Positions 3,916 to 54,330 of a stretch of DNA of 64,000 bases are shown here, in pieces. The translations under genes were made by a program, and so were the position numbers. Source of the stretch: Candidatus Gottesmanbacteria bacterium (GTDB lineage Bacteria > Patescibacteriota > Microgenomatia > UBA10105 > UBA927); the NCBI GenBank assembly GCA_963701185.1, contig OY969569.1, forward strand, positions 116,392-180,391. Direction: 5' to 3'. The notes beneath the pieces were generated by a model. That model worked only from the letters and a program-made list of their open reading frames with translations. It did no database searches and was not told the origin of the DNA. Within the stretch, counting starts at the first letter, position 1. The number at the start of each line of letters is the position of its first letter.

Positions 3916-3924
3916 GCCTACCAT

Positions 3925-8415: not shown

Positions 8416-8449
8416 CTGTCAATAGATAGTAAATGGTATAGTATAGGGA
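8414..8449 (+). promoter_or_regulatory. Candidate sigma70-type promoter for small ORF 8450
   Basis: TTGACT at 8414-8419 overlapping an 11-nt palindrome TTGACTGTCAA, then TATAGT/TATAGG-like -10 candidates about 19 nt downstream. It is the only >30-nt non-coding gap in the first 28 kb. Confidence 0.35.
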
Positions 8450-8701: not shown

Positions 8702-8722
8702 CGCTTCAGGTATAATTTGAGT

Positions 8723-35276: not shown

Positions 35277-36896
35277 ATGTTTTCCAAGACGTTGTTTATA
35301 GGCATTATTGTACTCTCTATTTTTTTCCGGTTTTGGCAACTTGGTACCGTACCTGATGGATTCCATGTCGATGAAGCGTCCGTGGGGTACAACGCGTATT
35401 CGTTGATGAAAACAGGACGGGATGAATCCGGTGTTTTTCTTCCTCTTACGTCGCGGGGCCTGAATGATTTTGGAGGCACCATCGGCTCATATATCACCAT
35501 TCCGTTTATTTATCTTTTCGGTCTTACCCAGTGGGCCGTGCGTGCTCCGACGGCGGTATTCGGCGTTCTGTTCGTACTTTTAACGTATGCGTTTGTATAC
35601 CGCATATCCAACAACCGCAGTGCGGCGCTCCTGTCTATGGCGCTTGCCGCTGTTTCGCCCGTAGGAATATTGCTGTCCAGAGCTCAAAGCGTTCTTGTCG
35701 GTTTCGTTATTTTTTACGGCGCAGCCTATTTGTGGCTTCTGTGGGCCCAAAAGCGGTCTTTTTGGTACCTGGGGTTGTCACTGTTGGGTATTGCGGTAAG
35801 TTTTTACACATATACGGGCATCCGGCTTTTTGCATTGCCTTTTTTATTACTGATGACTGTATGGCATTGGCGCACATTGGACAAACGATTGAGAGTTACC
35901 GCTGCGGCATTTTTTCTGATTATCGCTCTTTTTGTCGCCGGCTTGTTTTTTTCCCCGGCAGGCCGCCGGTTTTCGCAAATTAGCGTTTTTTCGACCCAAA
36001 ATGTCCAGTTGCCCCTGGATGAGGAAATACGTGAAGACGGCGCCCAGCATCAGCCGATACTGGTGACCCGCATGATTCACAATAAAGCGACTGCATACGG
36101 CCGGTTTTTTCTCACAAATTTCACGGATCATTTGAGTTTCCAGTTCTTATTTTTGCAGGCGAGCCAGCCGTTGCGTGAGAAGGTCCCCAACGCGGGAGTA
36201 TTGCTTCTTATTGAAGGCCCGTTTTTGTTGATCGGCATATATACGGTGATCAGGAAAAAATTATCGTACGGGGTATACAGCATTGTGTGGTTTCTGCTGG
36301 TTCCCGCGGTTATGAGCGTGGGAAGCGAAGAAACGCCGAACATTCACAGATTCTTTCTTGCCATGATTCCGGTACATCTTTTGGTGGCATACGGAATTCT
36401 TGCAACCATGCATGCGGTCAAAACAAAATACCGCCGCATACTTGCTTTCGGCCTGATTCTTTTGTTTGCCGTGAATGTCTTTTATTTTCTGCACGAACTA
36501 TTCGTGCACCAGCCGGTGCATGCGCCGATTTACCGGAACGGCGCGGATAAGGAATTAGCCATCTCCATCAGGGATAGGTATAGTTTCTATGACGTGGTCG
36601 TTTCACAGAAGATATTGCCGCATGTCCTCTTTTTTTGGCCGGTTGATCCCGAAACCTATCAGAAAGAAGGATCCCCGAGAGATACTGATTATGCGTGGTA
36701 CCGGAACATATTTTTTGTGGCAGACTCATGTCCGTCGCAGAGGTCCGACCCGGCAATTGCCGCAGTGCGTGCGTCGCGTGTTTTGTATATTGACAGGGCA
36801 GGATGTACCCTTATGAAGGATGATGTCATTATAAAAACCATAAAATATAAAAATACTCTGGATGTGTATTATCTGGTTGAGAAACGGGTGTTATGA
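35277..36896 (+). CDS. GT-C fold glycosyltransferase (PMT/ArnT-like), first of a tandem trio
   Basis: FHVDEASVGYNAYSLMKTGRDESG, AAVSPVGILLSRAQS. Confidence 0.7.
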   Translation: MFSKTLFIGIIVLSIFFRFWQLGTVPDGFHVDEASVGYNAYSLMKTGRDESGVFLPLTSRGLNDFGGTIGSYITIPFIYLFGLTQWAVRAPTAVFGVLFVLLTYAFVYRISNNRSAALLSMALAAVSPVGILLSRAQSVLVGFVIFYGAAYLWLLWAQKRSFWYLGLSLLGIAVSFYTYTGIRLFALPFLLLMTVWHWRTLDKRLRVTAAAFFLIIALFVAGLFFSPAGRRFSQISVFSTQNVQLPLDEEIREDGAQHQPILVTRMIHNKATAYGRFFLTNFTDHLSFQFLFLQASQPLREKVPNAGVLLLIEGPFLLIGIYTVIRKKLSYGVYSIVWFLLVPAVMSVGSEETPNIHRFFLAMIPVHLLVAYGILATMHAVKTKYRRILAFGLILLFAVNVFYFLHELFVHQPVHAPIYRNGADKELAISIRDRYSFYDVVVSQKILPHVLFFWPVDPETYQKEGSPRDTDYAWYRNIFFVADSCPSQRSDPAIAAVRASRVLYIDRAGCTLMKDDVIIKTIKYKNTLDVYYLVEKRVL

Positions 36897-38476
36897 AAAA
36901 AATAGTACTTCTTCTTATCGTTGCCGCGACACTGGTTCTCCGTGTGTATCATGTGACACAGGATCCTCCCGCACTGTCATGGGATGAAGTGTCCATCGGC
37001 TATAACGCATACAGCATCTTGAAAACCGGCCGCGATGAGCACGGGAAATTTTTGCCGTTTGATGCATTTGTCGCCTACGGAGATTACAAGCCTCCGCTTG
37101 CGGTGTATGCGACGGTGCCCTTTGTCGCAATCTTCGGACTCACGGATCTTGCTGTCAGACTGCCGGCTGCATTTTTTGGAACTCTCACGGTATTGTTGAC
37201 GTATTTCTTAGTGAAAGAACTCCTGAAGCGTGACCATTATGCTTTGTTGTCCGCCGCCGTTCTTGCCGTATCGCCGTGGCATATCAATATCTCCCGCGGG
37301 GGATTTGAGGCAAATATCGCGTTGTTTTTTGTCGTGCTGGGGACCTGGCTTGCCTTGTCCGCCGGGTCACATCCGCGCCGGTGGCTGTTTGCATGGCTTC
37401 CCTTCGTTGCCGCCATCTATACATTCAACAGCTCCAGGGTTTTTTCCGTGTTATTTGTGCCCGCATTGCTGGTCTTTCTTTTCCGGGATATTAAAAAGCA
37501 TGTGAGACTATTTATTACCGGCGTTGTTATCGCCGTCCTATGCGCGGCGCCGATCGTGCCGCATTTATTATCTGCCCAGGCGCGCCTCAGGTTTACGGAG
37601 GTAAATATTTTTACCGATCTTTCCGTTGTTGAAACCGCAAACTCCCGTCTTGCCCGGGAGCACGGAAATGTGATCGGTGAACTGGTGAATAACCGGCGGG
37701 TGGGATACGTCCGGAGCTTCCTTATTCATTTTATGGACAACCTTCAGCCGGACTTTTTATTCGTCAAAGGGGACGGGAATCCGAAATTTTCCATTCAGGA
37801 TGTCGGCCAGTTGTATCTTATTGAGGCGCCGTTTCTGGCAGTAGGAATAGCTATGCTCTTTTTATCGAATCCCGGCATTGCAGCACTGCTTATTTGGTGG
37901 ATCATCGCCGCTATTATCCCGGCAGCAACAGCCAGGGAAACTCCCCACGCCTTGAGAATCCTCAATTCGCTTCCCGCGTGGCATATCTTCGTCGCATACG
38001 GGATTCTGTCGATCTACACGTATATCAAAAAAGGCAGGGTTGTTTACGTTTTATTGCTTATAGTCCTCTATCTTTTCAGCATGACCTATTATTTGCACAA
38101 TTATTACCGTCATTATCCGGTTGAGTTTTCCGGAGAATGGCAGTACGGGTACGCGCAGGCGCTCGAGCGTATCGCCCCTATTGCCCAAAACTATGACCGA
38201 GTTGTGATGACGGACAGTATAGGCAGGCCGTACATGTATACGCTTTTTTATACAAAGACGGATCCTGCAGTATACCTGCGGAGCAAAGATTCATATTTCG
38301 ACGCGGAAGGGTTTTATCACGTTAAGGGATTCCTGAAGTATCGTTTCGGGGGGATGCTTCCGGACGAATTTGACGGGAAAACGTTGTATATATGGAATTC
38401 ATTGCCCGAGGGGGCGACACTCCTCGATACGATAAAATTATTAAACGGCAATCCGGTTTTGTATATTTTTATATGA
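36893..38476 (+). CDS. GT-C fold glycosyltransferase (PMT/ArnT-like), tandem trio
   Basis: LSWDEVSIGYNAYSILKTGRDEHG, LAVSPWHINISRGGFEAN. ATGA overlap. Confidence 0.7.
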   Translation: MKKIVLLLIVAATLVLRVYHVTQDPPALSWDEVSIGYNAYSILKTGRDEHGKFLPFDAFVAYGDYKPPLAVYATVPFVAIFGLTDLAVRLPAAFFGTLTVLLTYFLVKELLKRDHYALLSAAVLAVSPWHINISRGGFEANIALFFVVLGTWLALSAGSHPRRWLFAWLPFVAAIYTFNSSRVFSVLFVPALLVFLFRDIKKHVRLFITGVVIAVLCAAPIVPHLLSAQARLRFTEVNIFTDLSVVETANSRLAREHGNVIGELVNNRRVGYVRSFLIHFMDNLQPDFLFVKGDGNPKFSIQDVGQLYLIEAPFLAVGIAMLFLSNPGIAALLIWWIIAAIIPAATARETPHALRILNSLPAWHIFVAYGILSIYTYIKKGRVVYVLLLIVLYLFSMTYYLHNYYRHYPVEFSGEWQYGYAQALERIAPIAQNYDRVVMTDSIGRPYMYTLFYTKTDPAVYLRSKDSYFDAEGFYHVKGFLKYRFGGMLPDEFDGKTLYIWNSLPEGATLLDTIKLLNGNPVLYIFI

Positions 38477-40083: not shown

Positions 40084-41603
40084 AGAAAAAATTTATTGTT
40101 CCCATTACTATTATCGTTTTTATCTGGGGGATAGCGCTTCGTGCGATAGAGGTAGTCAACGGAAATTATCTTTTCGGATTTGACCAGGGTCGCGATTATC
40201 TGGCTGCCTACAATATCCTCGTCGGTCATAAATTTACCCTCATCGGCGCGGAAGTCGGGGCAGGGGCCGCAGGATTGTCGCATCTGTTCCATGGTCCCGG
40301 ATATTATTATCTTATTGCACTCATGGAACTTATGTTTCGGGGAGATCCGTACGGCGGTTTACTTCTTATGTTCTTTTTTGGCGTTTTGGCGCTTTTGGCT
40401 GTTTTTATTACAACGCGAAAAATGTTCGGTCAGGCCGTTATGCTCGTCACGTTGTTGTTATTGGGTATTTCACCGCTTATTGTTTCTCAGTCGCGGTTCA
40501 TGTGGAATCACCACCCGTCCACATTTTTCATCGTTATTGCATTGTACTTTGCATACATGATTACGAAAAAGCCGCGGATATATGCGCCGCTTGCGGTGTT
40601 TACTGCGGGCTTTATCTATCACTTTGAGCTTGCCATCGCCGTACCGTTTGTGATCGCGCTTGTTCTGGCACTCCCTCTGGTATTCCGCATAAAGGACGTA
40701 CGGACATATGTGTACAGCGTAATCGCCGGTGTGGCGGCGTTTTTTCCGTTTCTTTTATTTGAATCTCGGCACGGGTGGATGGCGATCCGTTCTCTTCTGG
40801 TATATACGACACCCCAGGGACCCGTAGGGAAAGACGTATGGTACCTGCGCATCATCGATCATATGGGTCCGTATATTAACAGCGCCGCAAATTCGTTTCC
40901 GAATGAGCAGGGATTGCTGCCGTTCTATTTTTATAAAGGTCTCTCGCTTGCGCTGGTTGTCGTCCTTATTATGTTGGCCTGGAGAGTGAAGGATAAACTG
41001 CACAGGAAGTTTTTCCGGTTTCTGCTGCTTTTGACGGCCGCTACGTACGGCGTGATGCTGCTTCTCGAGAACATGATTTGGGATTACTATCTTATTCATA
41101 TACACGTCGTATTCATATACATATTTGCATATAGCCTGATACGCAGTTTCCGCATGCTTAGGAAATCATTGTGGTCGCTTTTTGCTTTCGGCGCATTGAG
41201 TATTTTTCTCGTATCCATGATTTCAGCCTCTGCCTGGCGCATGAAAATAAGCTACACATACGATCTTCATGATTTCGGGGGTGTTGAAAAAATTAAAGGG
41301 AAGAAGGCCGCGATTGATTACGTATATCATGATGCAAAAGGTCAGCCGTTTTCAGAATTTACTTTTATGGCGCCTATTTATACGTACCCGTACGATTATC
41401 TGTTTACAACCTATGGGAAACAGGCCTATGGCTACGTGCCGGGGCGTGAGAAAAAAGGGCTTGTGTATCTCATTATCGAGCCGGACGCCTCCAAACCATG
41501 GACGTACAAAGGATGGCTGGAGACGGTTATTGTCGGGGGAGATATTATCAATACCGCTACCATTTCGGCCGGACAAATCATACAGAAGCGAATATTTCCA
41601 TGA
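40080..41603 (+). CDS. GT-C fold glycosyltransferase ('FGFDQGRD' subfamily, intact paralogue of 5031)
   Basis: NYLFGFDQGRDYLAAYNIL, GPGYYYLIAL. 507 aa polytopic protein. Confidence 0.6.
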   Translation: MKKKFIVPITIIVFIWGIALRAIEVVNGNYLFGFDQGRDYLAAYNILVGHKFTLIGAEVGAGAAGLSHLFHGPGYYYLIALMELMFRGDPYGGLLLMFFFGVLALLAVFITTRKMFGQAVMLVTLLLLGISPLIVSQSRFMWNHHPSTFFIVIALYFAYMITKKPRIYAPLAVFTAGFIYHFELAIAVPFVIALVLALPLVFRIKDVRTYVYSVIAGVAAFFPFLLFESRHGWMAIRSLLVYTTPQGPVGKDVWYLRIIDHMGPYINSAANSFPNEQGLLPFYFYKGLSLALVVVLIMLAWRVKDKLHRKFFRFLLLLTAATYGVMLLLENMIWDYYLIHIHVVFIYIFAYSLIRSFRMLRKSLWSLFAFGALSIFLVSMISASAWRMKISYTYDLHDFGGVEKIKGKKAAIDYVYHDAKGQPFSEFTFMAPIYTYPYDYLFTTYGKQAYGYVPGREKKGLVYLIIEPDASKPWTYKGWLETVIVGGDIINTATISAGQIIQKRIFP

Positions 41604-41633
41604 AAAAAATACTGAAGAGTCCGTTTTTTCTGG

Positions 41634-43205
41634 GTGCTTATTTTTTCATTATTGCCGCTTGCTTCACTATTTCATATAGGGTTGCCCGCGACGCATGACG
41701 GACAGGACCACGTAGCCAGAATTGCCAATTTTTACCGGTCGCTGGCAGAAGGGAATATCATTCCCCGGTGGGCGGGGTCTCTCAATTGGGGCTACGGACA
41801 TCCGATCCTCATGTTTTTATATCCGCTGCCGTCGTACATTGCATCTTTTTTTCATGCTCTGGGCCTTTCATTTGTTGACAGTACGAAGCTCGTGTTCGGG
41901 GTAGCCCTCATTGCCAGCGGACTGACGATGTATATGTGGATGAATGCTGCCTTTGGAAAAAAGGCGGGCATTGTCGGGGCGCTTTTGTATGTTTTTGCGC
42001 CGTACCGGTTTGTGGATTTATATGTGCGGGGTGCCATAGGGGAGCATGTGGCATTTATTTTTCCGCCGCTCGTACTGTATTTTCTCCGGAGACATTCCAT
42101 AATCGGCGTTTCATTTTCCCTTGCCGCGCTTATTCTTTCCCATAACGCCATAGCCATTATGTTCCTGCCGATTATAGGACTGTATGCTTTTTATCTTTTA
42201 CTATTTGAAGTGAAAAATAGGTGGTCGTTTATAGTTTATTGCTTATTGTCCGTCGTATTGGGTTTTGCCCTGTCCGCTTTCTTCTGGATACCCGCGTATT
42301 TTGAGGGTAAGTATACGCTTCGGGATATTGTTACGGCAGGAGATGTCGTGAAACGGTTTGTGCCCTGGTCATGGTTTCTGTATTCGCCGTGGAATTACGG
42401 ACTGGGTGAAACGATGTCAAAGTCATTGGGATTGATGCAGTGGTTTGGAGTTGCTGCCGCGATCTGGGCAATATGGAAGACGAAACAAAAAAACATACGG
42501 ATTCTGCTTGTATCCTTTTTGATAATTTTACTCGGATCATTATTTATTATGACCTCGGGGTCGCGGCCCCTGTGGATTGCCGTTACGATTTTGCAAAAGT
42601 TCCAATTTCCATGGCGCTTTCTTTCAGTATCGGTATTTGCCGCGTCAGCACTGGGAGGAATAGCATGTAGCCGGGCAAAAAAAGCATTCATTATTCCTTA
42701 TTCATTATTCATTATTCTGATTTCCGTCGGTATGTGGCACCCGAAAGCGTATATTTTCCATGATGAATCTTTTTATTCCGGCGTCTATGCCGGGACAACC
42801 GATACCGGTGAGAGCAGTCCGATCTGGTCGGTCCGATTTATGGAACATACCGCCCCGGCTCCGCTTGAGGTTATAGACGGTTCGGCGGTGATAACTGACG
42901 GCTTCCGTTCATCGACGGCGCATGAATATACGGTACAGGCCGCCAAACCTACACTCCTTCTTGAAAATACCGTGTATTTTCCTGACTGGAATGTATATGT
43001 AGACAAAACGGTTATCCCTATTGAGTACCAGAATCCGAATTACAGAGGGTTAATTACGTTTCAGGTTGCGGCAGGAACCCATAGCGTCCGGGTAGTATTT
43101 GAAAATACGAAGTTGCGCACTGTAGCCGAGAGGATTTCGCTCGCCGCTCTTGCTATAATCGCAGTGTCAGGTGTGGTACCTATCTTATGGCGGAAAAGAA
43201 CGTAA
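41634..43205 (+). CDS. Polytopic membrane protein, 'HD...GYGYP' family. The N-terminus is possibly disrupted; an upstream ATG at 41600 is in another frame
   Basis: PATHDGQDHVARIANF..EGNIIPRW..GYGHPILMFLYPLPSY. Carries in-frame repeat copy A at 42226-42251 (VYCLLS). See the finding on the T6 tract at 41642-41647. Confidence 0.55.
   Translation: MLIFSLLPLASLFHIGLPATHDGQDHVARIANFYRSLAEGNIIPRWAGSLNWGYGHPILMFLYPLPSYIASFFHALGLSFVDSTKLVFGVALIASGLTMYMWMNAAFGKKAGIVGALLYVFAPYRFVDLYVRGAIGEHVAFIFPPLVLYFLRRHSIIGVSFSLAALILSHNAIAIMFLPIIGLYAFYLLLFEVKNRWSFIVYCLLSVVLGFALSAFFWIPAYFEGKYTLRDIVTAGDVVKRFVPWSWFLYSPWNYGLGETMSKSLGLMQWFGVAAAIWAIWKTKQKNIRILLVSFLIILLGSLFIMTSGSRPLWIAVTILQKFQFPWRFLSVSVFAASALGGIACSRAKKAFIIPYSLFIILISVGMWHPKAYIFHDESFYSGVYAGTTDTGESSPIWSVRFMEHTAPAPLEVIDGSAVITDGFRSSTAHEYTVQAAKPTLLLENTVYFPDWNVYVDKTVIPIEYQNPNYRGLITFQVAAGTHSVRVVFENTKLRTVAERISLAALAIIAVSGVVPILWRKRT
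42226..42251 (+). repeat. Copy A of the dispersed 'GTTTATTGCTTATTGTCC' repeat (in-frame inside the 41634 gene)
   Basis: Exact 18-mer at 42234-42251, encoding VYCLLS. Flank cgtttata resembles the extended consensus GATTAyTG. Confidence 0.9.
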
Positions 43206-43957
43206 AACTTTCGGTCGCAATTGCCGTTTATAACGAAGAGAAAAATATCGAAGCGTGCCTCGCGTCGGTCCGCGGTTTGGCCGACGAAATCATTGTGGTG
43301 GACGGCGGATCAGGCGACCGCACGGTTTCCCTTGCCCGCGCATTTGGTTCCCGCATCATAGAGACGGATAATCCGCCGATGTTTCATTTAAATAAGCAAA
43401 AAGCACTGGATGCCTGCTCGGGGAGCTGGATACTTCAGCTTGATGCCGATGAACGGGTGACTCCCGCATTAAACAAAGAAATACGTTCGGTTATCAATGC
43501 CGGGTCGTCCGACGTTAACGGCTACTTTATCCCGCGGAAGAATTATTTTTGGGGACATTGGATGCGTAAAGGCGGGCAGTATCCGGATTATGTCATGCGG
43601 CTTGTGCGCCGCGGCAAGGCTCATTTTCCCGCCAAAAGCGTCCATGAACAAATTGATGTCATCGGTGAACCGGGGTACCTCACGGAGCCGATGGATCATA
43701 TTTCCTACCGGACCCGCGAAGATTATTGGAGGAAGGCGGAGAGTTATACAACGCTTGCCGCCATGGAAATGAAAAGAGACGGAGTCGGCAAAAACCCGTG
43801 GACGTGGTTTACCTACAATATTATAAAGCCGCAAATGACATTCCTTTCGTTGCTTATCCGTCATAAGGGATTTATGGACGGTTGGTACGGGTTGGTATTT
43901 GCCTACTTTTCCGCCCTGCATTTTCCGATTACGTATAAAAAATTCCTAAAGTTATGA
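43187..43957 (+). CDS. GT2 glycosyltransferase (paralogue of 15482 and 17256)
   Basis: LSVAIAVYNEEKNI...DEIIVVDGGSGDRT...LQLDADERV. Confidence 0.8.
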   Translation: MAEKNVKLSVAIAVYNEEKNIEACLASVRGLADEIIVVDGGSGDRTVSLARAFGSRIIETDNPPMFHLNKQKALDACSGSWILQLDADERVTPALNKEIRSVINAGSSDVNGYFIPRKNYFWGHWMRKGGQYPDYVMRLVRRGKAHFPAKSVHEQIDVIGEPGYLTEPMDHISYRTREDYWRKAESYTTLAAMEMKRDGVGKNPWTWFTYNIIKPQMTFLSLLIRHKGFMDGWYGLVFAYFSALHFPITYKKFLKL

Positions 43958-44493
43958 AAAAGAAAGTGATCATCTTGTTGATTACTGTTTATTGCTTATT
44001 GTCCACTGTTTCTTCAGTTTATGCCGACTATGTTCTTCCGTACCCGTCCTACATGCCTGGAAATAAACTATACCGGCTCACGAGGATTGTTGATCAATTA
44101 AAAAAGTATTGGTATCGGGGCAACATTGCGCAGACGAAGTATCACCTTGCATTGTCGGATAAGTATCTGGTCGAGGCGAGTACCCTCATGGAATATAAGC
44201 AGTACCTTCTCGGAGCTGATGCGCTGCGGAGATCCGATGCGGAGTTTGCGACGCTACCGGCATACGTTGCCGGCGCCAAAAAAGAAGGAGTCGACGTGCA
44301 TGAGCTGCAGCTTCTTCTTGCGGCTGCAGCCGGGAAACACAGGGAAGTATTAACCGGGCTTCTCCCCGTTGTCCCGCCGGACTTTACCTGGACTCCGGAG
44401 AAATCCAAGCCGACGGCGCTGCCTTTAAGCGACATAATCTCAGCATCAGTTGGTATTAGACAACGTATTGCCAGTGCAACAGGATCCCTATAA
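43954..44493 (+). CDS. Secreted hypothetical protein (signal peptide, 179 aa)
   Basis: MKKKVIILLITVYCLLSTVSSVYA|DY is an Sec-type signal peptide. The mature part is helical and Ala-rich, with no recognised domain. The h-region of the signal peptide is encoded by repeat copy B. Confidence 0.55.
   Translation: MKKKVIILLITVYCLLSTVSSVYADYVLPYPSYMPGNKLYRLTRIVDQLKKYWYRGNIAQTKYHLALSDKYLVEASTLMEYKQYLLGADALRRSDAEFATLPAYVAGAKKEGVDVHELQLLLAAAAGKHREVLTGLLPVVPPDFTWTPEKSKPTALPLSDIISASVGIRQRIASATGSL
43980..44005 (+). repeat. Copy B of the dispersed repeat (26 nt, GATTACTGTTTATTGCTTATTGTCCA)
   Basis: Matches the right inverted repeat of the 50850-51286 cassette at 25/26 positions. Encodes LITVYCLLS of the signal peptide. 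Confidence 0.9.
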
Positions 44494-44495
44494 TC

Positions 44496-45578
44496 ATGGC
44501 ACTCATCGCAGTGTTACTATTTTTAGCGGCAATAGGCATCGTAGGAGTTTTTTCCTACGGGTTTATTGATCCGAATTTGGTTTTATCCGCACACGTCATG
44601 TTTTCCCGGATTGCGGACCGGCCGGCGGCGGCCGTCATATTTTTCGTTATCCTTCTTGTTCTGTTTGCCGCGTACCTGTATTTTCTGAAGCACCCGCCGA
44701 AGTTTTGGGTGATACTGGCGGCGGCCGTCATGCTGGTTTTCTCGTATCCGGCTCTTACCTATGACGTATTCAACTACATCGCTACTGCCAAAGTTACATA
44801 TACATACCATGAAAACCCGTATATCATCATGCCGGTCGAGATCCCGAACGAACCCAATCTGGCATTTACAAGGGCGGCAAATAAAACAGCACTGTACGGG
44901 CCTGTGTGGATCGCATTGAGCGCCGTCCCGCATTATCTGGGGATGGGCAGCGTATGGCAGACAATCATTGCATTTAAGGCCATGAATTTGGCTGCGTATC
45001 TGGGGTTTTGTTATCTCATATACCGGGTCACTAAGAAGACGGCGAATGTTATTTTTTTTGCCGCCAATCCGCTGGTTTTGATAGAAGTGCTTATGAACGG
45101 ACATAATGACATTTACATGATGCTTGCGGCACTCGGAGGCCTGTTGTTGTGGCGTCAAAACAGGAAAGTCAGCGGATTTTTACTCTTCGCTGTTTCATGG
45201 CTGGTAAAGGGCGCGACCATAGTTCTTCTCCCGCTGTTATTTTTGAAAAATATATCAACGGAACGTCTTCTTCTCATTGCTTATTGCTTATTGTCCTTCG
45301 TTTTTTTTGTTATTGCCCCGGTCCGTGAAGAACTCTATCCATGGTATGCAGTCTGGCTTATTGCATCCGCGTCGCTGTTGCCTCTGAAGAACCACCGGTT
45401 CATATTCGGATTCACTGTCGTATTGTCTTTTGCGCTGGAGCTGCGTGCACTCCCGTATATGTGGATGGGATATTATGAAGGACCGGGACCGGCGCTTCGG
45501 CTGATACTCACTCTTGTTCCCGTTGTTGTGTATGCAGCATATACCGGGTTCCGGTATGTCTCTCAAAGAAAAACATGA
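44496..45578 (+). CDS. Polytopic membrane protein, putative GT-C-like (paralogue of 7258..8415)
   Basis: SYPALTYDVFNYIATAKVTYTYHENPY. Contains repeat copy C as an apparent 6-codon insertion relative to 7258. Confidence 0.5.
   Translation: MALIAVLLFLAAIGIVGVFSYGFIDPNLVLSAHVMFSRIADRPAAAVIFFVILLVLFAAYLYFLKHPPKFWVILAAAVMLVFSYPALTYDVFNYIATAKVTYTYHENPYIIMPVEIPNEPNLAFTRAANKTALYGPVWIALSAVPHYLGMGSVWQTIIAFKAMNLAAYLGFCYLIYRVTKKTANVIFFAANPLVLIEVLMNGHNDIYMMLAALGGLLLWRQNRKVSGFLLFAVSWLVKGATIVLLPLLFLKNISTERLLLIAYCLLSFVFFVIAPVREELYPWYAVWLIASASLLPLKNHRFIFGFTVVLSFALELRALPYMWMGYYEGPGPALRLILTLVPVVVYAAYTGFRYVSQRKT
45279..45296 (+). repeat. Copy C of the dispersed repeat (GCTTATTGCTTATTGTCC, 17/18)
   Basis: Encodes AYCLLS. 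Immediately followed by a T8 homopolymer (45300-45307). Confidence 0.85.
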
Positions 45579-47113
45579 AAAAAGGAATAATTATTTTCAT
45601 GATGCTGTGTATTCTTTTTGCCGTGTGGCCGCTGTTTGGCAGAAACTATATCCCGACGCACGACGGAGAATACCACATCATCCGCATTGTCGAATTTTCC
45701 CGTATGCTGGGAGAAGGCTACGTAGTGCCCCGATGGGCGCCGGATATGAACAGCGGCTACGGGATACCGATTTTTAATTTCCATTACCCCCTCCCGAACT
45801 ATATCGGTTCATTTGTCCGGGTTTTCACCGGGGATGCAGTGCGTGCGTTCCAGATGAGCATGGGAGTAGGGTACATCGTGCTTGCCGCAGCTGCATATTT
45901 TTGGTTACTCACCCTGTTTGGCGCCCTTCCGGCTGCGGTGGGAGCCATCGTTGCCGCATTCGTCCCGTACGTTTTTGTTGATATGTATGTGCGGGGTTCT
46001 ATCGGTGAAATCTGGGCGACTGCGTTCTTATTTATATGCTTCTATCTCCTGGAAAAGAAAAAATTTGTTTGGTTTGCCCTTGCATACGGACTCCTCATCC
46101 TCTCGCATAACATCATGGCAATGCTCTATACGCCGTTTTTGTTGGGATATGCGCTGATCCGGAATAAAAAGGCAGCCCTGTGGATGCTGGGCGGAATTGG
46201 TATGTCCGCTTTTTTCTGGATGCCTGCGCTTCTGGAATCCAAATACGTGGTCGGCCTTAATACCGTAAATTTCCGGGAACATTTTGTACAGCTGTACCAG
46301 CTTCTTATCCCATCGTGGGGTTCAGGGTTTTCCGGAAGCGGGTCATTCGGCAATACAATATCATTTCAAATAGGTCTCGTGCCGATACTTGCCTTTGTCG
46401 GAGCATTATATTCATCACGTAAAAAAATTCTTCTGTATTTTATTTTCTTTTTTGCCGTGTGCGTTCTCCTTATGTTGCCCCTGTCGCTGCCGGTATGGGA
46501 ATTTATCAAGCCCCTTGCGCTCATGCAGTACCCGTGGAGATTGCTGTCGTTTGTTATTCCTATAGCCGGTTTTTGTGCGGCTTTTTGGGTATCGTTGATG
46601 AAACGGAAATGGCCAGGGATAGCAATCGCCATTCTTGCAGTTATTTTTGCCGCTTCTTACGCACGTCCGGTTCTCTATGAACCCAGAAATGAAGCCTATT
46701 ATATGTCGCGGGCCAATTTTACCGATGGCACATCATCCATGGGAAATAGTTTTTCTACAATCTGGACGGGGTGGAAGGATACGCGCCCGAAAGATCCGAT
46801 CGTTGTGGAAAGCGGGCAGCTGAGGAAGATCCACCAGATGCGGTATCTTAATAAAACATTTGATGTCATTATGGTCGGCACAGGGCGCGTTACCGTCAAT
46901 ACGCTTTATTTTCCGGGGTGGACAGCAACTGTAGACGGGAAAAACGTACCCATCGATTATCAGAAAGACGGTATTATTCATTTTTCCGTTCCTGCAGGAG
47001 CACACCTGATACGCGTTATTTTTACCGATACGCCGATCCGAAATGCGGGAAACATCATTTCGATCGCCAGCGTGGCTGTCCTGGCCGTTTTAGGGTATAC
47101 TTCTTTACAATGA
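45575..47113 (+). CDS. Polytopic membrane protein, 'HD...GYGYP' family paralogue
   Basis: PTHDGEYHIIRIVEF..GEGYVVPRW..GYGIPIFNFHYPLPNY. C-terminal LYFPGWTATVDGKNVPIDYQKDGIIHFSVPAGAHLIRVIF. Confidence 0.55.
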   Translation: MKKGIIIFMMLCILFAVWPLFGRNYIPTHDGEYHIIRIVEFSRMLGEGYVVPRWAPDMNSGYGIPIFNFHYPLPNYIGSFVRVFTGDAVRAFQMSMGVGYIVLAAAAYFWLLTLFGALPAAVGAIVAAFVPYVFVDMYVRGSIGEIWATAFLFICFYLLEKKKFVWFALAYGLLILSHNIMAMLYTPFLLGYALIRNKKAALWMLGGIGMSAFFWMPALLESKYVVGLNTVNFREHFVQLYQLLIPSWGSGFSGSGSFGNTISFQIGLVPILAFVGALYSSRKKILLYFIFFFAVCVLLMLPLSLPVWEFIKPLALMQYPWRLLSFVIPIAGFCAAFWVSLMKRKWPGIAIAILAVIFAASYARPVLYEPRNEAYYMSRANFTDGTSSMGNSFSTIWTGWKDTRPKDPIVVESGQLRKIHQMRYLNKTFDVIMVGTGRVTVNTLYFPGWTATVDGKNVPIDYQKDGIIHFSVPAGAHLIRVIFTDTPIRNAGNIISIASVAVLAVLGYTSLQ

Positions 47114-48836: not shown

Positions 48837-50065
48837 TTAACAATAGCCTTGCCAGAAACAGCGCGATTGTTTTTGCCGGATCCATGGCGGCTAACGTTCT
48901 GGCGTATGTGTATCACCTGCTGATGGGCAGACTTCTGGGCCCGGCAGGATACGGGGAGTTTTCTTCACTCGTGTCGATATTTTATATATTTTCCGTTCCC
49001 CTTGTCGTCGCTTCGACGGTGCTTGTAAAGTTTATTTCCGGATTTAAGGCCCGTCATGCAATCGGTCAGGCAAAATCTCTTTTCTGGAGCGTGACAAAAT
49101 TAGTTTTCGTCATTTCTCTTATCGGACTGCCGGTTATGCTGGGAGCCGCGCCGTGGATCACATCGTTTTTGCATTTATCGTCAGGGGTGTTATTTATGCT
49201 GGTATATCTGACATTCGTCATGTCGCTCCTTTCGATTGCGCCGGCCAGCATGCTTCAGGGGTATCAGCGTTTTGTCTGGGTAAGCGTATTCGCGGTATTC
49301 ATGGTTGCGGTAAAAATACTTTTTAGTGTGCCGATGGCCGCATGGGGAGTATATGGAGTGCTGTCGGCTGCCGCCATCGCCGCAGCCGTTACGTATCTTC
49401 TCTATTATATTCCGCTTGGTTTTATATTAAAGGCAAAAAGTGAGAAAAGCACTGTCAGTAAGCGTGATGCATTCCGGTTTGCAGTCCCGACATTGTTGAT
49501 TCAGCTGGGCATGACATCTTTGTATACGACCGATATCATTCTTGTCAGACATTTTTTCCCCGCAGCGGAGGCCGGATTATATGCCGCACTCGCAATTCTG
49601 GGGAAAATTATATTTTATGCATCAAGCTCGGTTTCTCTTGTTCTTTTTCCCGTTTTGTCAGAACGTACGGAGACAGGTGCGGCGACAAAAAAGCTTACGG
49701 CATCAGCTGTCGGCGGCGTCACTGCGGTTTCCGCCGGAGTCACCGCATTATATTTTCTTTTTCCTGACTTTATTGTAGGATCTCTGTTCGGCAACGCGTA
49801 CGCGGGAGCGGGAAGTTTCCTGGGATTGTTCGGCGTATTTCTTGCATTGTTTTCAGTGGGGAGCATTATCGTGACGGCGTGTTTAGCGTTGGGACGAACC
49901 GGCGTGTGGTTCGTGCCGGTCACCTGTGCTATTCTGCAGATTGCCGGTATAGCCGTTTGGCATGAGAGTATCGGAACAGTCATCAATCTGAATATAGGCG
50001 TCTGTACCCTGTATGTTTTGGGATCTGCCGTCTATTACCTGAAAGTCACGTATGCGAAAATTTAG
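48803..50065 (+). CDS. MOP-superfamily flippase (Wzx-like)
   Basis: 420 aa with about 12 TM helices. N-terminal LINNSLARNSAIVFAGSMAANVLAYVYHLLMGRLLGPAGYGEF resembles Wzx N-termini. Confidence 0.6.
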   Translation: MDTYKISFRKLINNSLARNSAIVFAGSMAANVLAYVYHLLMGRLLGPAGYGEFSSLVSIFYIFSVPLVVASTVLVKFISGFKARHAIGQAKSLFWSVTKLVFVISLIGLPVMLGAAPWITSFLHLSSGVLFMLVYLTFVMSLLSIAPASMLQGYQRFVWVSVFAVFMVAVKILFSVPMAAWGVYGVLSAAAIAAAVTYLLYYIPLGFILKAKSEKSTVSKRDAFRFAVPTLLIQLGMTSLYTTDIILVRHFFPAAEAGLYAALAILGKIIFYASSSVSLVLFPVLSERTETGAATKKLTASAVGGVTAVSAGVTALYFLFPDFIVGSLFGNAYAGAGSFLGLFGVFLALFSVGSIIVTACLALGRTGVWFVPVTCAILQIAGIAVWHESIGTVINLNIGVCTLYVLGSAVYYLKVTYAKI

Positions 50066-50843
50066 CTTAATTATTCCTGTATATAAACAGCAGCAGACCA
50101 TTAAACGCGACATTGAGGACGTCATCTCCGTGCTTTCAACAGCAAAGATTGATTTTGAGATTATCCCGGTCATCGACGGGCAGCTGGACCGCAGTTTTCA
50201 GGAGGCCGGTAAAGTGAAAGACAAACGGGTCCGTGTGGTGGGGTATCAGACGAATCACGGAAAAGGGTATGCCGTCCGGTACGGATTTTCCCAGGCCACG
50301 GGAGACGTGATCGGATTTAAAGACGCAGGGCGGGATTTGAAGCCCGATGCGCTGCCTCTTATGATAGCGGAATTTGATTTTCAACACGCAGATATTGTTA
50401 TCGGCAGTAAAAGGCACCCTGGTTCGAAAGTGGAGTATCCGTTCATCCGAAAAATTCTGTCATGGGTATATCAAAAATTTACTAAACTGCTGTTCGGCCT
50501 GGAAGTCAGGGATACACAGGTTGGAATGAAACTATACAGACGTAAAGTGTTGGAAGATGTATTGCCGAGATTACTTGTGAAGCAATTCGCATTTGACATA
50601 GAGATACTGGCCGTTGCATATCACCTGGGGTACCGAAAAATTTACGAAGCGCCGGTTGAGATAGACTTTTTTTCTGCAAAATCAAGTATTGTTTGGAGCA
50701 AGCTCATACGGATCGTTCTTAATATGCTTCGGGACACGCTTGCCGTGTATTACCGGCTTTACATACTCCGTTATTACGATGATGCGAGCAAACGGAAGTG
50801 GCGGTTCGATCCGGAGTTGAACTTTAGAATTAACATAGGGTAA
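50052..50843 (+). CDS. GT2 glycosyltransferase
   Basis: FSLIIPVYKQQQTI...IIPVIDGQLDRS...VIGFKDAG. Cytosolic GT2 core. Confidence 0.75.
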   Translation: MRKFSLIIPVYKQQQTIKRDIEDVISVLSTAKIDFEIIPVIDGQLDRSFQEAGKVKDKRVRVVGYQTNHGKGYAVRYGFSQATGDVIGFKDAGRDLKPDALPLMIAEFDFQHADIVIGSKRHPGSKVEYPFIRKILSWVYQKFTKLLFGLEVRDTQVGMKLYRRKVLEDVLPRLLVKQFAFDIEILAVAYHLGYRKIYEAPVEIDFFSAKSSIVWSKLIRIVLNMLRDTLAVYYRLYILRYYDDASKRKWRFDPELNFRINIG

Positions 50844-50849
50844 AGAAAC

Positions 50850-51286
50850 GGACAATAATCATTAATCAATAATCGAAAAACGGTATGGATGATGCTAGGA
50901 TTGGTCCAATAAATGATCTACTTTTTGCAAAGGCAGATGATTTGGCTCAATTTATTTACGAATTAACCTATTCATTTCCAAAGGAAGAATTGTTCGGAAT
51001 TACGTCACAGCTAAGACGCGCAGTTTTATCATTACCGCTAAATATTACTGAAGGATATGCGCGGAGAAGCGATCAGGATTATCGTAGATTTCTTGATATA
51101 GCATATGGGTCGTTAAAAGAAGTAAAATATCTTTTATATTTTTGTAAACAAAGAAAAATAATTTCATCTGACAATTATGAAAAACATATGAAAATAGCAG
51201 ACGAATTAGGAGGACTATTATGGAAGAAAATATCTACGTTGCGAAGTAAAGTAACGAAATAGATTATTGTTTATTGCTTATTGTCC
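50850..51286 (+). mobile_element. Inverted-repeat-bounded mini-cassette carrying a four-helix-bundle (23S rRNA IVS-protein family) gene
   Basis: Left IR 50850-50875 GGACAATAATCATTAATCAATAATCG. Right IR 51261-51286 AGATTATTGTTTATTGCTTATTGTCC, whose reverse complement matches the left IR at 22/26. The enclosed ORF is visibly AT-richer than the flanks. No target-site duplication is evident. Confidence 0.55.
50885..51262 (+). CDS. Four-helix-bundle protein (23S rRNA-intervening-sequence protein family)
   Basis: 125 aa. LTYSFPKEELFGITSQLRRAVLSLPLNITEGYARRS..DYRRFLDIAYGSLKEVKYLL matches the conserved F...E...L.SQLRRA..S...NI.EG..R.....F..IA.GSL.E..Y.L signature of this family. Confidence 0.8.
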   Translation: MDDARIGPINDLLFAKADDLAQFIYELTYSFPKEELFGITSQLRRAVLSLPLNITEGYARRSDQDYRRFLDIAYGSLKEVKYLLYFCKQRKIISSDNYEKHMKIADELGGLLWKKISTLRSKVTK

Positions 51287-51289
51287 ATC

Positions 51290-52405
51290 ATGAGGATATT
51301 AATTTTAAATTGGCGGGACGTCAGTCACCCCAAATCCGGCGGTGCGGAGCATGTGACGATGGAGCATGCAAAAGCGTGGGTGAGGGCGGGACACACCGTC
51401 ACGTGGCTGACCAGTCATTATGGCCGTGCGAAGCATGAAAGCACCGTAGATGGCGTGAATTTTGTCCGCCGTGCGGGGTCGCTGACGATCTACCTGTATG
51501 CACCGCTGTATCTTATGCGAAATGCGCACTCATTTGACGTGATTGTTGATGAAGCACACGGATTTCCGTTTTTTTCCCCGTTATTTACCCGAAAGCCGGT
51601 TGTGATTTTTATTCATGAAATTGCGGGGGAAATATGGGATTACATGTTTTCCTTCCCCAAAAACGTTATCGGAAAGTTGCTGGAGCGCTGGTATTTCCGG
51701 GTATATACGCATTGTTTGTTCTGGACCGATGCGCCGTCAACCGCAGAAGAAATTTCCTATCGGGGAATTCCTGTGAGCCAATGCGTTGCGATTCCCTGCC
51801 CGATTATAAAAAGTTCAAAGTTTAAAGTTCAAAGTTCTACTAAAGAACAACATCCCACATATCTTTTCGTCTCCCGCGTGGTGCGCATGAAAGGCGTGGA
51901 GGAGGTTATAAAAGCGTTTTCATTTATTGCCAGAGAACGGCCCGACAGCACATTGTGGATTGTCGGCGGCGGGGAGCCGGGATATATTGCGGAACTTGAT
52001 GATATGACAAAGGAATACGGTGTGAAAAACCGTGTGATGTTTCTCGGGACGCTTTCCGAAAAAGAGAAATATGAACGTATGAGCCGTGCGCATCTCTTGC
52101 TGCACGCATCGGTGAAAGAAGGATGGGGGCTTGTCGTCCTGGAGGCGGCATCGGTCGGTACGCCGGCAGTCGTGTATAACGTCAGCGGGTTAAATAGCGT
52201 GGTGAAAGACGGGGAGACCGGTATTGTGTGTAAGGAAAACTCTCCGCGGGAAATGGCCCGTGAGGCGATGATGCTATACAACAATAAAACGACATACCGC
52301 AAATATCAGGAGAACGGACGTTCATGGGCAAAAAGTTTTCACTGGTCGGATGCAGTCAAACAAAGTCTTTCATTGCTGAAACGGGCAACTTACCGTACTT
52401 CATAA
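51290..52405 (+). CDS. GT4 glycosyltransferase
   Basis: MRILILNWRDVSHPKSGGAEHV. C-terminal EGWGLVVLEAASVGTPAVVYNVSG. ATG 51290 is 3 nt after the right IR. Confidence 0.85.
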   Translation: MRILILNWRDVSHPKSGGAEHVTMEHAKAWVRAGHTVTWLTSHYGRAKHESTVDGVNFVRRAGSLTIYLYAPLYLMRNAHSFDVIVDEAHGFPFFSPLFTRKPVVIFIHEIAGEIWDYMFSFPKNVIGKLLERWYFRVYTHCLFWTDAPSTAEEISYRGIPVSQCVAIPCPIIKSSKFKVQSSTKEQHPTYLFVSRVVRMKGVEEVIKAFSFIARERPDSTLWIVGGGEPGYIAELDDMTKEYGVKNRVMFLGTLSEKEKYERMSRAHLLLHASVKEGWGLVVLEAASVGTPAVVYNVSGLNSVVKDGETGIVCKENSPREMAREAMMLYNNKTTYRKYQENGRSWAKSFHWSDAVKQSLSLLKRATYRTS

Positions 52406-54330
52406 ATCTTAATGGTGTTATTGATAAACACTAGGTCTAAAATATTGCTGACGTTGTCTAACACAAGATTTTTATTACTGTCCATATAGATGTACTTAAT
52501 TCTATTTTTTATTAATTCTTCCCTTACTTTTGTTCCATCAGTACTGCTAAAAATTATGTTTACAGATAGTGCTTGCGGGACGAAAGGGATTCCGTGTGTG
52601 ATTAGCTCGTTTCCCGTATTGGAAAGAAACATCGGCCTGTCAGTATAAACCCCTACATAAGGCGCTTCAGAGTTAAGACCGGTAGTTGGCTCCACTAATA
52701 CGATTGAATTTTCCGGGGTTTCGTTTTGCACGAAATTAAATGCTTTTAATTCTTCGTTGTTTATTACATAACCGGCGTGATTTTTTATGTTAATAATATT
52801 TGTTACTACGGACTGAACGGATTCCGGAACGGTGAGAATGATAATTAAGAAAGCAAGGAATGCATACAATTTTGAATTTTTAAAATTCAACCAATGTGAG
52901 CAGGCAAGAGCTGTATAAAACAAGGCGATAACAAAGGCGGTATAGATAAAGAAGATGCTGTTAGCTCCGCCGGGATTTTGAAGAAAAAATAATCCTATAA
53001 ACGAACACACAATAATTCCTGAAATGAGAAATATATGTATCTCACGCGGAAATAATCGTAACGACTTTTTTGATTGTATAAATCCGAGCAAAACGGTTCC
53101 AAAAGACAGAAAATAGAACAGGGTAAACATCAGGTCGTACACGAGGACTTTTGGCCAATTATTATGACTTTGGTACACCAGTCGTGCCAGTTCGTACCGG
53201 GATAAATTAAACATCGGCTGGACAACCCAATCCTCGACTCTCCAGAAACCGGAGTAAAAAAGTCCGCCCGCACCCAAATTGACAGGAGCGTAGATAATAA
53301 TACTCACAAGAATTGCAAGGAGAGAAGGAACTACCAGCTGAAAATTTTTCTTGATGCAGAGATATCCTGCAGTTATCAGGAGACCACATAAAGAAGCAAT
53401 AGCAGTATTGACCTTAAAGCCGATGACGCTGCCAAAAATAAAGCCGGCAAGAAGAGCTGTATACATTTTTCTCTCTTTACTCCAGACAACGAATATATTT
53501 AATTCTCCTAAAAAGACCACCAGAGAAAACGCCATAGGATAATTGACAAGAAAATTTGAAGCAGGAGCAATGACAGAGCTATGGAAAGATAGGGTTTTTT
53601 GCAATAGAAGAATTGTCAGGTACACCGAATCGCCCGTAAAATATAAAAAGAAAATGAGCCATAAAGTAAAAGACTGTTTTAGTTTCAATAACCGTCCGAA
53701 CGTTATTCCCAAACAACCATATAATATACTCAGCAATAACGGAACATACTGCATGGTTGTATTAACTAACGGAAGATGAAATACGCGGACTAATTCAGCG
53801 ACCGCAATGTGTCCCCAGTAGTGATAATTTCTGACTGTTACGCCTTGTAATCCGGGTTCTATCGGAGGAAAATTATGAGTAATTTGGTTCACGTACGCTA
53901 TATGTAAGATGTTATCCCTGGTATCGCCGCAGCAGTAATAAATACCGTCCTTAAATTGGGTGCCTGCGAACCATGTAACAGTTAATTGTGCAACTACGCC
54001 TAACGACAAAAGGAAAATCAATGGGATTATTGACCGGGGTATGATAGGGATGCGGAAGATATGTTTTTCCTTTATGAAAAACCAAAGCCATGTGATACCG
54101 GTTAAAAGCACATACACGTACGTCAGCCATCTCGCCTGCAGGTATCCGAATATCATACCCTGCCAGGCAAGCAAAACAATGCCCACGACCAGGCTCAGCG
54201 AAATATTTTCAAATTTGCTAAGCCTAAGTTTTTTTAGTACGAGTGATCCCGGAATATATACGGAGAAAAAAACTGCGATCCAGAAATAGATGAAATTCAA
54301 CCAAAATTGTACGTTAAGAAACGTTTGCAT
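52390..54330 (-). CDS. Large polytopic membrane protein (646 aa) with C-terminal extracytoplasmic domain. Low-GC, unknown family (GT-C or polymerase-like candidate)
   Basis: About 14 TM helices followed by a ~150-aa soluble C-terminal domain. Markedly AT-rich relative to neighbours. The 3' end overlaps the 3' end of the 51290 gene by 16 nt. Confidence 0.45.
   Translation of the reverse strand: MQTFLNVQFWLNFIYFWIAVFFSVYIPGSLVLKKLRLSKFENISLSLVVGIVLLAWQGMIFGYLQARWLTYVYVLLTGITWLWFFIKEKHIFRIPIIPRSIIPLIFLLSLGVVAQLTVTWFAGTQFKDGIYYCCGDTRDNILHIAYVNQITHNFPPIEPGLQGVTVRNYHYWGHIAVAELVRVFHLPLVNTTMQYVPLLLSILYGCLGITFGRLLKLKQSFTLWLIFFLYFTGDSVYLTILLLQKTLSFHSSVIAPASNFLVNYPMAFSLVVFLGELNIFVVWSKERKMYTALLAGFIFGSVIGFKVNTAIASLCGLLITAGYLCIKKNFQLVVPSLLAILVSIIIYAPVNLGAGGLFYSGFWRVEDWVVQPMFNLSRYELARLVYQSHNNWPKVLVYDLMFTLFYFLSFGTVLLGFIQSKKSLRLFPREIHIFLISGIIVCSFIGLFFLQNPGGANSIFFIYTAFVIALFYTALACSHWLNFKNSKLYAFLAFLIIILTVPESVQSVVTNIINIKNHAGYVINNEELKAFNFVQNETPENSIVLVEPTTGLNSEAPYVGVYTDRPMFLSNTGNELITHGIPFVPQALSVNIIFSSTDGTKVREELIKNRIKYIYMDSNKNLVLDNVSNILDLVFINNTIKIYEVR

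Follow-up and report, generated by a model that had tools for sequence, protein, structure and literature searches.

The cassette at the GT2-GT4 junction

We analysed a 64,000-nt stretch of DNA from a Candidatus Gottesmanbacteria bacterium (contig OY969569.1), hereafter called the window, and concentrated on a 446-nt segment that separates two glycosyltransferase genes of the GT2 and GT4 families. The segment, here called the cassette, contains one open reading frame (ORF) for a small four-helix-bundle protein, which is enclosed by two inverted arms (Table 1). The GC content of the insert is 0.318, compared with 0.453 for the GT2 gene and 0.489 for the GT4 gene, confirming the AT-richness that had been noted in a preliminary description of this DNA.

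Both arms are built of three tandem heptamers, with the pattern CAATAAN in the left arm (50853-50873) and NTTATTG in the right arm, and they carry the complementary caps GGA and TCC. The reverse complement of the right arm, GGACAATAAGCAATAAACAATAATCT, is identical to the left arm at 22 of 26 positions, i.e. the imperfect inverted repeat proposed earlier is real. A repeat finder reported an inverted repeat of 25 nt with 88% complementarity (22 of 25 positions paired) and a distance of 387 nt between the arms. The spacing of arms and ORF was likewise as described before: the left arm lies 9 nt upstream of the ATG, and the right arm shares two nucleotides with the TAG of the ORF. It ends 3 nt upstream of the GT4 start codon. 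The leaders of orthologous cassettes (see below) resemble that of the window in being A-rich and devoid of a Shine-Dalgarno motif.

The ORF list offered a TTG at 51281 as the GT4 start. The product begins with MRILILNWRD when it is read from the ATG at 51290, and the latter codon was chosen because the orthologues begin with MNILILNWRD directly after the GT2 stop codon. No terminator-like sites were found flanking the cassette, and no match to an Rfam family, rRNA or tRNA was present anywhere in the window.

Table 1. Features of the cassette, its host genes, and the half-arrays in the window
Feature	Position	Strand	Basis or context
Whole insert, 446 nt, GT2 TAA to GT4 ATG	50844..51289	+	empty orthologous junctions, GC contrast
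Left arm GGACAATAATCATTAATCAATAATCG, i.e. GGA + heptamers CAATAAT CATTAAT CAATAAT + CG	50850..50875	+	sequence, repeat finder
A-rich 9-nt leader AAAAACGGT, without clear Shine-Dalgarno motif	50876..50884	+	sequence
Gene for 125-aa four-helix-bundle protein (PF05635 / TIGR02436, S23p type), ATG 50885, TAG 51260-51262	50885..51262	+	profile matches
Right arm, i.e. AG + heptamers ATTATTG TTTATTG CTTATTG + TCC	51261..51286	+	sequence, repeat finder
GT2 glycosyltransferase, 263 aa, upstream host gene	50052..50843	+	PF00535 E=4.8e-22
GT4 glycosyltransferase, downstream host gene	51290..52405	+	PF00534 E=6e-38, PF13439
Right-arm-type half-array GTTTATAGTTTATTGCTTATTGTCC, encodes FIVYCLLS in a membrane segment	42226..42251	+	inside ORF 41634..43205
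Half-array TGATTACTGTTTATTGCTTATTGTCC, LITVYCLLS in a signal peptide or membrane anchor	43979..44004	+	inside ORF 43954..44493
Half-array GCTTATTGCTTATTGTCC, encodes IAYCLLS	45279..45296	+	inside ORF 44496..45578
Degenerate copy of 41-nt segment, 80% identical to 43977-44017	38039..38079	+	inside ORF 36893..38476

The encoded protein

The ORF matched the profiles PF05635 (E=3.5e-31, 108 bits, cut-off 33.8; residues 15-112 of 125) and TIGR02436 (E=1e-30, 106 bits, cut-off 24), and thus the earlier assignment to the four-helix-bundle or 23S rRNA intervening sequence (IVS) protein family holds. In an alignment of 24 sequences, the residues R45, S49, N53, and E56 are invariant; they form the polar motif R-x3-S-x3-N-x2-E of helix 2, which had already been published for the family (PMC3936711). 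The sole solved relative found by sequence is XCC0516 (PDB 2gsc, E=1e-18), the entry of which has five chains and which has been described as a homopentameric toroid (PMC4990558). Compared with orthologues, the dN/dS values range from 0.06 to 0.16 at saturated synonymous sites (pS 0.66-0.83), and therefore the gene is real and its protein is under purifying selection.

Avd, a homologue that works with RNA in diversity-generating retroelements (DGRs), belongs to the same four-helix-bundle superfamily. Profiles of the Avd type scored below their cut-offs (PF22296, E=8.6e-7, 29.9 versus 40; NF033474, E=4e-7, 30.3 versus 80), and a PHROG annotated as "Avd protein of DGR" was matched with E=1e-8. 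In contrast to avd genes, the cassette gene adjoins glycosyltransferase genes and not a reverse transcriptase gene, and the window has no long near-identical direct repeats that could represent a template/variable repeat pair. An identity as a DGR Avd was rejected on these three grounds, i.e. scores, neighbours, and missing repeat pair. A role as a defence-system component was also rejected, as the protein had no match among the PADLOC defence-system profiles. The cassette does not encode a transposase, recombinase, or nuclease, and its protein contains no such domain.

Empty and filled junctions in related operons

For comparison, we used 80 metagenomic loci with GT2 orthologues that are 50-83% identical to that of the window. 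The distance between the GT2 stop codon and the GT4 ATG is at most 46 nt (1-46) in 41 of the 80 loci, and 37 have a distance of only 1-8 nt. The locus L091, which has the closest flanking genes (81-93%), contains the empty junction TAAcgtATG and reads ATAGGGTAAcgtATGAAT. In the window, the filled site has the sequence TAA-agaaac-(left arm, ORF, right arm)-atc-ATG. As the two codons nearly abut in the orthologues, the additional 446 nt comprise the arms with everything between them, plus 6 nt on the left side and 3 nt on the right side. The cassette is therefore a discrete indel bounded by its arms, and orthologous loci that lack the proposed insert do exist. A target-site duplication was not visible, neither between the filled and the empty site nor across the nine cassettes described below.

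In a tree of GT2 proteins, the loci with a cassette, which include the window and its sister locus L002, are found in at least four separate clades nested within a set of 39 empty junctions. The cassettes and the GT2 proteins differ in their ranks of identity to the window, e.g. 77% versus 58% for L004 and 66% versus 72% for L005. Judged from these sequence comparisons, the patchy distribution seems easier to reconcile with movement, possibly via recombination between conserved flanking genes, than with strictly vertical descent.

Two loci (L122 and L155) contain distant PF05635 genes, with 32-34% identity to that of the window, at the same GT2-GT4 junction. These occupants have heptamers of their own, GATTAAN in L122 and a GGTCGTA-like unit in L155. 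Selfish modules in general seem to use this junction as a landing site. At another locus (L098, 3793-4749), it is filled by a 957-nt minus-strand gene pair encoding an AbiEii toxin (PF08843) and a DUF6922 protein.

Arms of orthologous cassettes

Nine distinct cassettes with 66-85% amino acid identity were compared, i.e. those of the window, L002, L003, L004, L005, and L168-L171. All nine have upstream arms of one to three modules, each consisting of GGAC and three to four units of CAATAAR, CAGTAAR, or CAGAAAA, and downstream arms of one to three complementary modules with GTCC at the end. As the arms recur in all nine cassettes and the synonymous sites of the gene are saturated, the conservation of the non-coding arms exceeds that of silent sites. 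The repeat was thus found again both in the window and in every related cassette, in agreement with its earlier description as recurrent. All nine cassettes reside in the same type of operon. Six are located between GT2 and GT4, in L002 and L169 the cassette lies one junction upstream, between a flippase gene and GT2, and the ORF of L003 points against the direction of its operon, with the arms in their normal place.

Inverted tandem arrays are typical of PF05635 genes

We extended the comparison to homologues with 42-57% identity, using one genome per species; at least 80 loci were listed, the source genome of the window not being among them, and all family-wide values given here were obtained among these matches. 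The labels of the loci are mostly those of Patescibacteria, i.e. the Candidate Phyla Radiation (CPR), and include also Omnitrophota, Planctomycetota, Bdellovibrionales, and Gammaproteobacteria. Among the matches listed, metagenome bins of Patescibacteria/CPR contained the closest relatives of the window's genes. None of the 80 listed homologue loci is located in an rRNA gene.

The complementarity of the flanks was scored by aligning the 100 nt upstream of each gene to the reverse complement of the 100 nt downstream, and 288 other genes of the same loci served as controls. The median score was 32.5 for 76 PF05635 genes versus 16 for the controls (p=2e-27), and scores of at least 30 were reached by 67% of the PF05635 genes versus 3% of the controls. 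Four of the nine control outliers turned out to be further PF05635 genes. The cassette of the window has a score of 35, which is equalled or exceeded by about 2% of the 288 control genes, several of them being unrecognised PF05635 genes. Shuffled window sequence yielded no match to either arm, and together with the score distribution of the control genes this excludes chance or low complexity as the origin of the repeat.

The arms are almost always tandem arrays with a period of 7 or 8, which is mostly equal in both arms, and with 3-15 copies. Examples of the units are CATGTAA, CTTGAAA, CTTATAA, CAGAAAA, GCACAAGA, and CATTTTAG. The density of arrays within 120 nt of PF05635 genes is 22-fold that elsewhere. 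For 59 of 71 genes, both neighbours are on the gene's own strand, the median gaps being 44 and 38 nt, and none of the 71 is placed antisense within an operon (gaps <150 nt). The median distance from the upstream stop codon to the beginning of the left arm is 0 nt, as is that from the end of the right arm to the downstream start codon. Arms and ORF are co-inherited. Protein identity and arm similarity correlate with a rho of 0.28; arms are shared by 37% of the pairs with at least 70% identity versus 2% of those with 30-40%. Proteins that are about 76% identical are flanked by different units (CATGAAA, CTTGAAA, CTTATAA), while the two arms of each cassette stay complementary to one another.

Cultured cyanobacteria also possess PF05635 genes with heptamer arms, i.e. 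Picosynechococcus PCC 7003 between cmr2 and cmr3 (L176), Anabaena 90 between cas6 and cas4 (L174), and plasmids of Nostoc, in which (GGGAACA)n and (CTGTTCC)n arrays are arranged in inverted order around the genes. Exceptions are a Calothrix gene without arms, a Nostoc 7120 gene that is disrupted by an insertion sequence, and a composite arrangement in Pseudanabaena. The latter (L181, a plasmid, 900-1610) comprises an ORF-less TAGCTTT/AAAGCTA hairpin, (AAAGCTA)15, the ORF, and (AAAGCCA)10 in direct order. The presence of PF05635 genes in cas operons had been read as a possible functional association (PMC3936711). The genes found in cas, conjugation, and glycosylation operons are probably passengers and not functional partners.

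ORF-less hairpins and half-arrays

Hairpins of the same repeats that lack an ORF were found in relatives. In L002, a 172-nt ORF-less hairpin (3826-3998) occupies the GT2-GT4 junction, and the ORF-bearing copy lies one gene upstream. It has three left modules as well as two clear and one degenerate right module, which are the same as those of the cassette arms. A mini-hairpin of this kind is present in L095 at the junction of a flippase gene and a GT2 gene (FLIP|GT2b), and L104 contains one ORF-less hairpin at two junctions of a single operon, including that of GT2 and GT4 (1598-1770 and 3790-3934), with the ends (AACCAAG)12 and (AACCAAG)8. In the L104 hairpins, the T-rich arm comes first, the reverse of the order in ORF-bearing cassettes. 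In L005, a complete ORF-less heptamer hairpin (8270-8375) is located in frame in a GT2 gene (7961-8878) and adds about 31 residues (TMSNKQKELQDRKQKTENRKQNCSLLIAHCP), showing that heptamer hairpins are able to add residues to proteins in frame.

The ORF-less hairpins lend support to the earlier reading of the unit as similar to a miniature inverted-repeat transposable element (MITE) with cargo. Like a MITE, the cassette has terminal inverted repeats, and its short, palindromic, non-coding derivatives between genes, which may be multi-copy, resemble both MITEs and Rickettsia palindromic elements (RPEs). Unlike a MITE, it has no target-site duplication and no known transposase partner, its arms are periodic, and the full-length form carries a gene that does not encode a transposase. 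RPEs reportedly occur in frame within protein-coding genes, as Ogata et al. are said to have described in 2000, and the hairpin in the L005 GT2 gene and the half-arrays of the window in membrane segments are comparable to them in this respect. The 64-kb window itself holds one ORF-bearing copy and four half-arrays, and the ORF-less copies are in relatives.

The half-arrays had been announced as solo copies of the repeat that support mobility. The repeats are real at 42226, 43979, and 45279 (that at 38039 is degenerate), but all four reside in coding sequences on the plus strand, in regions for membrane segments or a signal peptide, and their classification as free intergenic repeats was therefore rejected. 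Three of them have one reading frame in common, which yields (V/A)YCLLS. At these sites, the host proteins lack homology to each other, and the DNA is 63-80% alike over up to 41 nt, which points to copying at the DNA level. All of them are oriented one way, and the explanation is that stop codons are absent from all three frames in this orientation but not in the other. The half-arrays, as far as their sequences can tell, support the view that the repeat spreads. An alignment with a 33%-identical paralogue has a gap of five residues at the half-array, in an ambiguously aligned region.

Relationship to rRNA intervening sequences and short tandem repeats

Intervening sequences of 23S rRNA are inserted in helix 25 or helix 45, and ORF-bearing examples are known also from Leptospira. 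The IVS of Coxiella has a stem of 28 bp formed by terminal inverted repeats, and 3-4 tandem GACAGAT units, the number of which varies by strain, are located just upstream of the ATG of its S23p gene; RNase III cuts the IVS at the first repeat, and the ORF was reported to be decaying and probably untranslated (PMC4990558). We found a second example on the plasmid AZO_p2 of Azospirillum lipoferum 4B (L182, 13192-15885), in a 23S rRNA gene (RF02541, 2086 bits) with a PF05635-like ORF. At about 1140-1615 of this locus, the IVS follows the sequence ...GAAGCUGCGGAUUC, and the ORF lies between inverted arrays of the heptamers GACAGAG and GACGGAG. The PLSDB gene table, which omits RNA genes, lists no feature at the Azospirillum IVS.

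The cassette shares with these elements the ORF family (S23p / PF05635), the location of the ORF between complementary termini of about 25-30 bp, and a 5' arm of tandem heptamers that ends a few bases before the ATG (GACAGAT and GACAGAG/GACGGAG in Coxiella and Azospirillum, CAATAAN in the window). In this arm, relatives carry GGACAGTAA and GGACAGAAAA. The variation of the repeat number among strains or relatives and a leader poor in Shine-Dalgarno motifs are further common traits. The differences are also clear. The cassette is part of a polycistronic mRNA, at a stop/start junction flanked by GT2 and GT4 and not in helix 25 or 45, its ORF is under strong purifying selection in contrast to the decaying Coxiella ORF, and RNase III excision, which has been demonstrated for the IVS, is for the cassette proposed by analogy. 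As it resides outside of rRNA, the cassette is not a strict member of the rRNA IVS. Nevertheless, the design shared with Coxiella and Azospirillum shows that it has a genuine ORF-bearing IVS anatomy in an mRNA, and the IVS-like architecture of stem, ORF, and stem within an operon that had been suggested is borne out by the heptamers of both IVS. The cassette is built like an rRNA IVS and probably also works like one.

Short tandemly repeated repetitive sequences (STRRs) are a second group of relevant elements. They consist of tandemly repeated 7-bp units and give rise to hairpins between genes that are co-transcribed, e.g. hupS and hupL, and roles in transcript stability or translational coupling have been proposed (PMC2670836). 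The cassette is similar in having tandem 7-bp repeats that form a predicted hairpin between co-transcribed genes, and the inverted arrays around PF05635 genes on Nostoc plasmids are of this kind. In contrast, STRRs have been described as ORF-less and from heterocystous cyanobacteria, whereas the host of the window is of the CPR/Patescibacteria type and the unit is CAATAAR and not that of STRR1, STRR2, or STRR3. A literature search that covered few subscription journals yielded no paper linking STRRs to PF05635 genes, and no paper giving periodic inverted arms as a general trait of PF05635 genes; the Coxiella paper was the only one found in it that describes repeats around this gene family.

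ORF-bearing IVS in rRNA were already known, and new is the IVS-type element in mRNA operons. The greatest value of the results lies in the family-wide pattern of inverted 7- or 8-nt arrays around PF05635 genes in operons, together with the ORF-less relatives and the likeness to STRRs. The results suggest that the rRNA IVS is a special case and that the general element consists of a PF05635 ORF between two periodic stems, is mostly placed in sense orientation between co-transcribed protein genes, and has arms that abut the stop and start codons of its neighbours. Thereby 23S rRNA IVS, S23p proteins, and STRRs, which have posed open questions for about 30 years, become accessible to tests. A wider proposal, which we consider possible rather than likely, is that PF05635 cassettes, ORF-less rRNA IVS, STRRs, and in-frame hairpins might all belong to one superfamily of "self-insulating" hairpins that invades structured RNAs and operon junctions. 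The pentameric protein would recognise or propagate the periodic arms, and would be the autonomous partner of the ORF-less forms.

A putative RNA-insulating cassette

We interpret the segment 50844-51289 as an RNA-insulating cassette of the IVS type that was inserted into an operon, and assign a probability of roughly 0.6 to this interpretation. The cassette, a promoterless PF05635 gene between inverted heptamer arrays, would be horizontally or locally mobile and would have inserted exactly into the former 1-8-nt junction of two co-transcribed and translationally coupled glycosyltransferase genes, so that its gene would be transcribed within the host operon. In the transcript, the arms would pair to a stem of about 22-25 bp with the ORF looped out, which would place the stop codon of GT2 (6 nt ahead of the stem) and the start codon of GT4 (3 nt behind it) side by side. 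The stem might thus make the insertion tolerable, by the same device as in ORF-bearing IVS of 23S rRNA helix 45, where it is cut by RNase III. Cleavage of the stem by RNase III could separate the cistrons, or the stem could keep the start of GT4 masked until its outer half is melted by a ribosome that terminates on GT2, so that coupling would be maintained; the two options are not mutually exclusive. We infer the formation of the stem in vivo, the cleavage or coupling, the role of the protein, and the mode of movement from the comparisons described above.

The predicted folding of 50840-51295 is compatible with this mechanism. A long-range stem closes the cassette in the minimum free energy structure as well as in the centroid, with pair probabilities of about 1, and the energy of the arm duplex is -23.9 kcal/mol. 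The stem expected in the preliminary description was thus recovered in this segment and lost in a longer context, i.e. its probability drops to 0.4 with flanks of 300 nt and to about 0 with flanks of 600 nt. We treat the latter value as a limit of prediction and not as a disproof.

The decreasing probability is one of several observations that weigh against an insulating stem. The stem is AT-rich and contains three mismatches, and among the arm mismatches, sense-strand changes compatible with G-U pairs are not in excess (48 versus 66, p=0.11); hence, there is no specific sign of RNA-level selection. Pairing of the arms alone also leaves their periodicity unexplained. The arrays have direct order at a few loci (L181, L042, and L066). 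Arrays of the arm type are also found within coding sequences, which looks like a behaviour at the DNA level, and the in-frame and half copies likewise appear to point to a spread of DNA. A weak promoter-like match (50830-50859) overlaps the left arm, and the cassette gene may be transcribed independently. In addition, this cassette lineage was found in only one type of operon, which is compatible with a long residence and repeated loss.

Some of these observations would be explained if the arms acted mainly at the DNA level, as ends for recombination or transposition (single-stranded DNA hairpins or terminal inverted repeats), and the RNA stem were incidental. This explanation and the insulating cassette agree on the anatomy and differ in what is maintained by selection. 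ORF-less copies at several junctions, including two in one operon, the complete hairpin in frame in the L005 GT2 gene, and the 18-41-nt copies in four non-homologous coding sequences of the window would be in line with it, as would the missing G-U bias of the sense strand and the L003 ORF, which is inverted between its arms as recombination of inverted repeats would yield. However, the lack of a transposase, recombinase, or nuclease, in the cassette or in the domains of its protein, and of a target-site duplication argues against DNA ends. The arm sequences diverge fast and yet stay mutually complementary, which fits selection for pairing better than a fixed protein-binding end, and DNA ends alone would not lead one to expect the strict sense orientation in operons (59 of 71, none antisense). 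We consider this explanation unlikely, and regard the insulating stem as the better account of complementarity and orientation. It does not explain why the arms consist of 3-15 copies with a period of 7 or 8 nt, a feature that would be expected of a binding array in which each repeat is bound, on RNA or DNA, by one subunit of the cassette's own protein, which is a pentameric ring in the solved relative, with the pairing of the arms being secondary. The benefit of such an array could lie in autoregulation, in shielding the transcript, or in propagating the element. The conservation of the unit and of the GGAC/GTCC caps in nine cassettes despite saturated synonymous sites, the toroid formed by the relative XCC0516, and, from general knowledge, the cooperation of the homologue Avd with RNA agree with this possibility. 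The correlation between protein identity and arm similarity agrees as well, but is equally expected from common descent. Moreover, the copy number is not tied to five, proteins with about 76% identity reside between different units, and ORF-less arrays persist far from any PF05635 gene, making a binding array as the primary function rather improbable.

The gene could also be an old, vertically inherited accessory of the glycosylation operon, e.g. a regulator, that was cleanly lost many times. That all nine members of the lineage are found in the same operon type, that selection on the protein is strong, and that the window and the sister locus L002 both carry the gene would be expected for a resident gene. 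About 40 related operons, including L091, have a scarless junction of 1-8 nt, however, two different slots are occupied and one copy is inverted, and unrelated PF05635 lineages as well as ORF-less hairpins are found at the same junction. The family occurs elsewhere in unrelated settings (cas, conjugation, rRNA), and the GC content of 0.32 deviates from that of the flanks (0.45-0.49). In view of these results, old residence seems very improbable, and an inserted insulating cassette remains our preferred interpretation.

Additional arrays and neighbouring genes

Another heptamer array, with four tandem units (AAAGTTC/AAAGTTT), lies in the window at 51809-51839. It codes for the peptide KSSKFKVQSS in GT4, in the hypervariable linker between the domains. 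The interpretation of this array as an insertion was rejected, as the length equals that of the orthologues and the linker is merely hypervariable. L005 and L105 have arm-type arrays (..CAGAAAGCAGAAAG) in the same linker. A further array of five units of the type ATTCATT/ATTCCTT is present at 42685-42719, inside the ORF 41634..43205.

The latter ORF belongs to a group of five tandem paralogous genes for large membrane proteins, which are located upstream of the glycosyltransferase genes (36893-47113) and the products of which are 16-33% identical to that of the 41634..43205 member. The first and the fourth paralogue contain one half-array each, and the other two half-arrays are in the ORFs 43954..44493 and 44496..45578, between the fourth and the fifth paralogue. 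The orthologue in L003 has a weak match to PTPS_related. Downstream of GT4, the plus-strand run of glycosyltransferase genes is broken by a minus-strand gene for a multi-pass membrane protein of 646 aa (52390-54330), which has a GC content of 0.386 and may be a separate acquisition.

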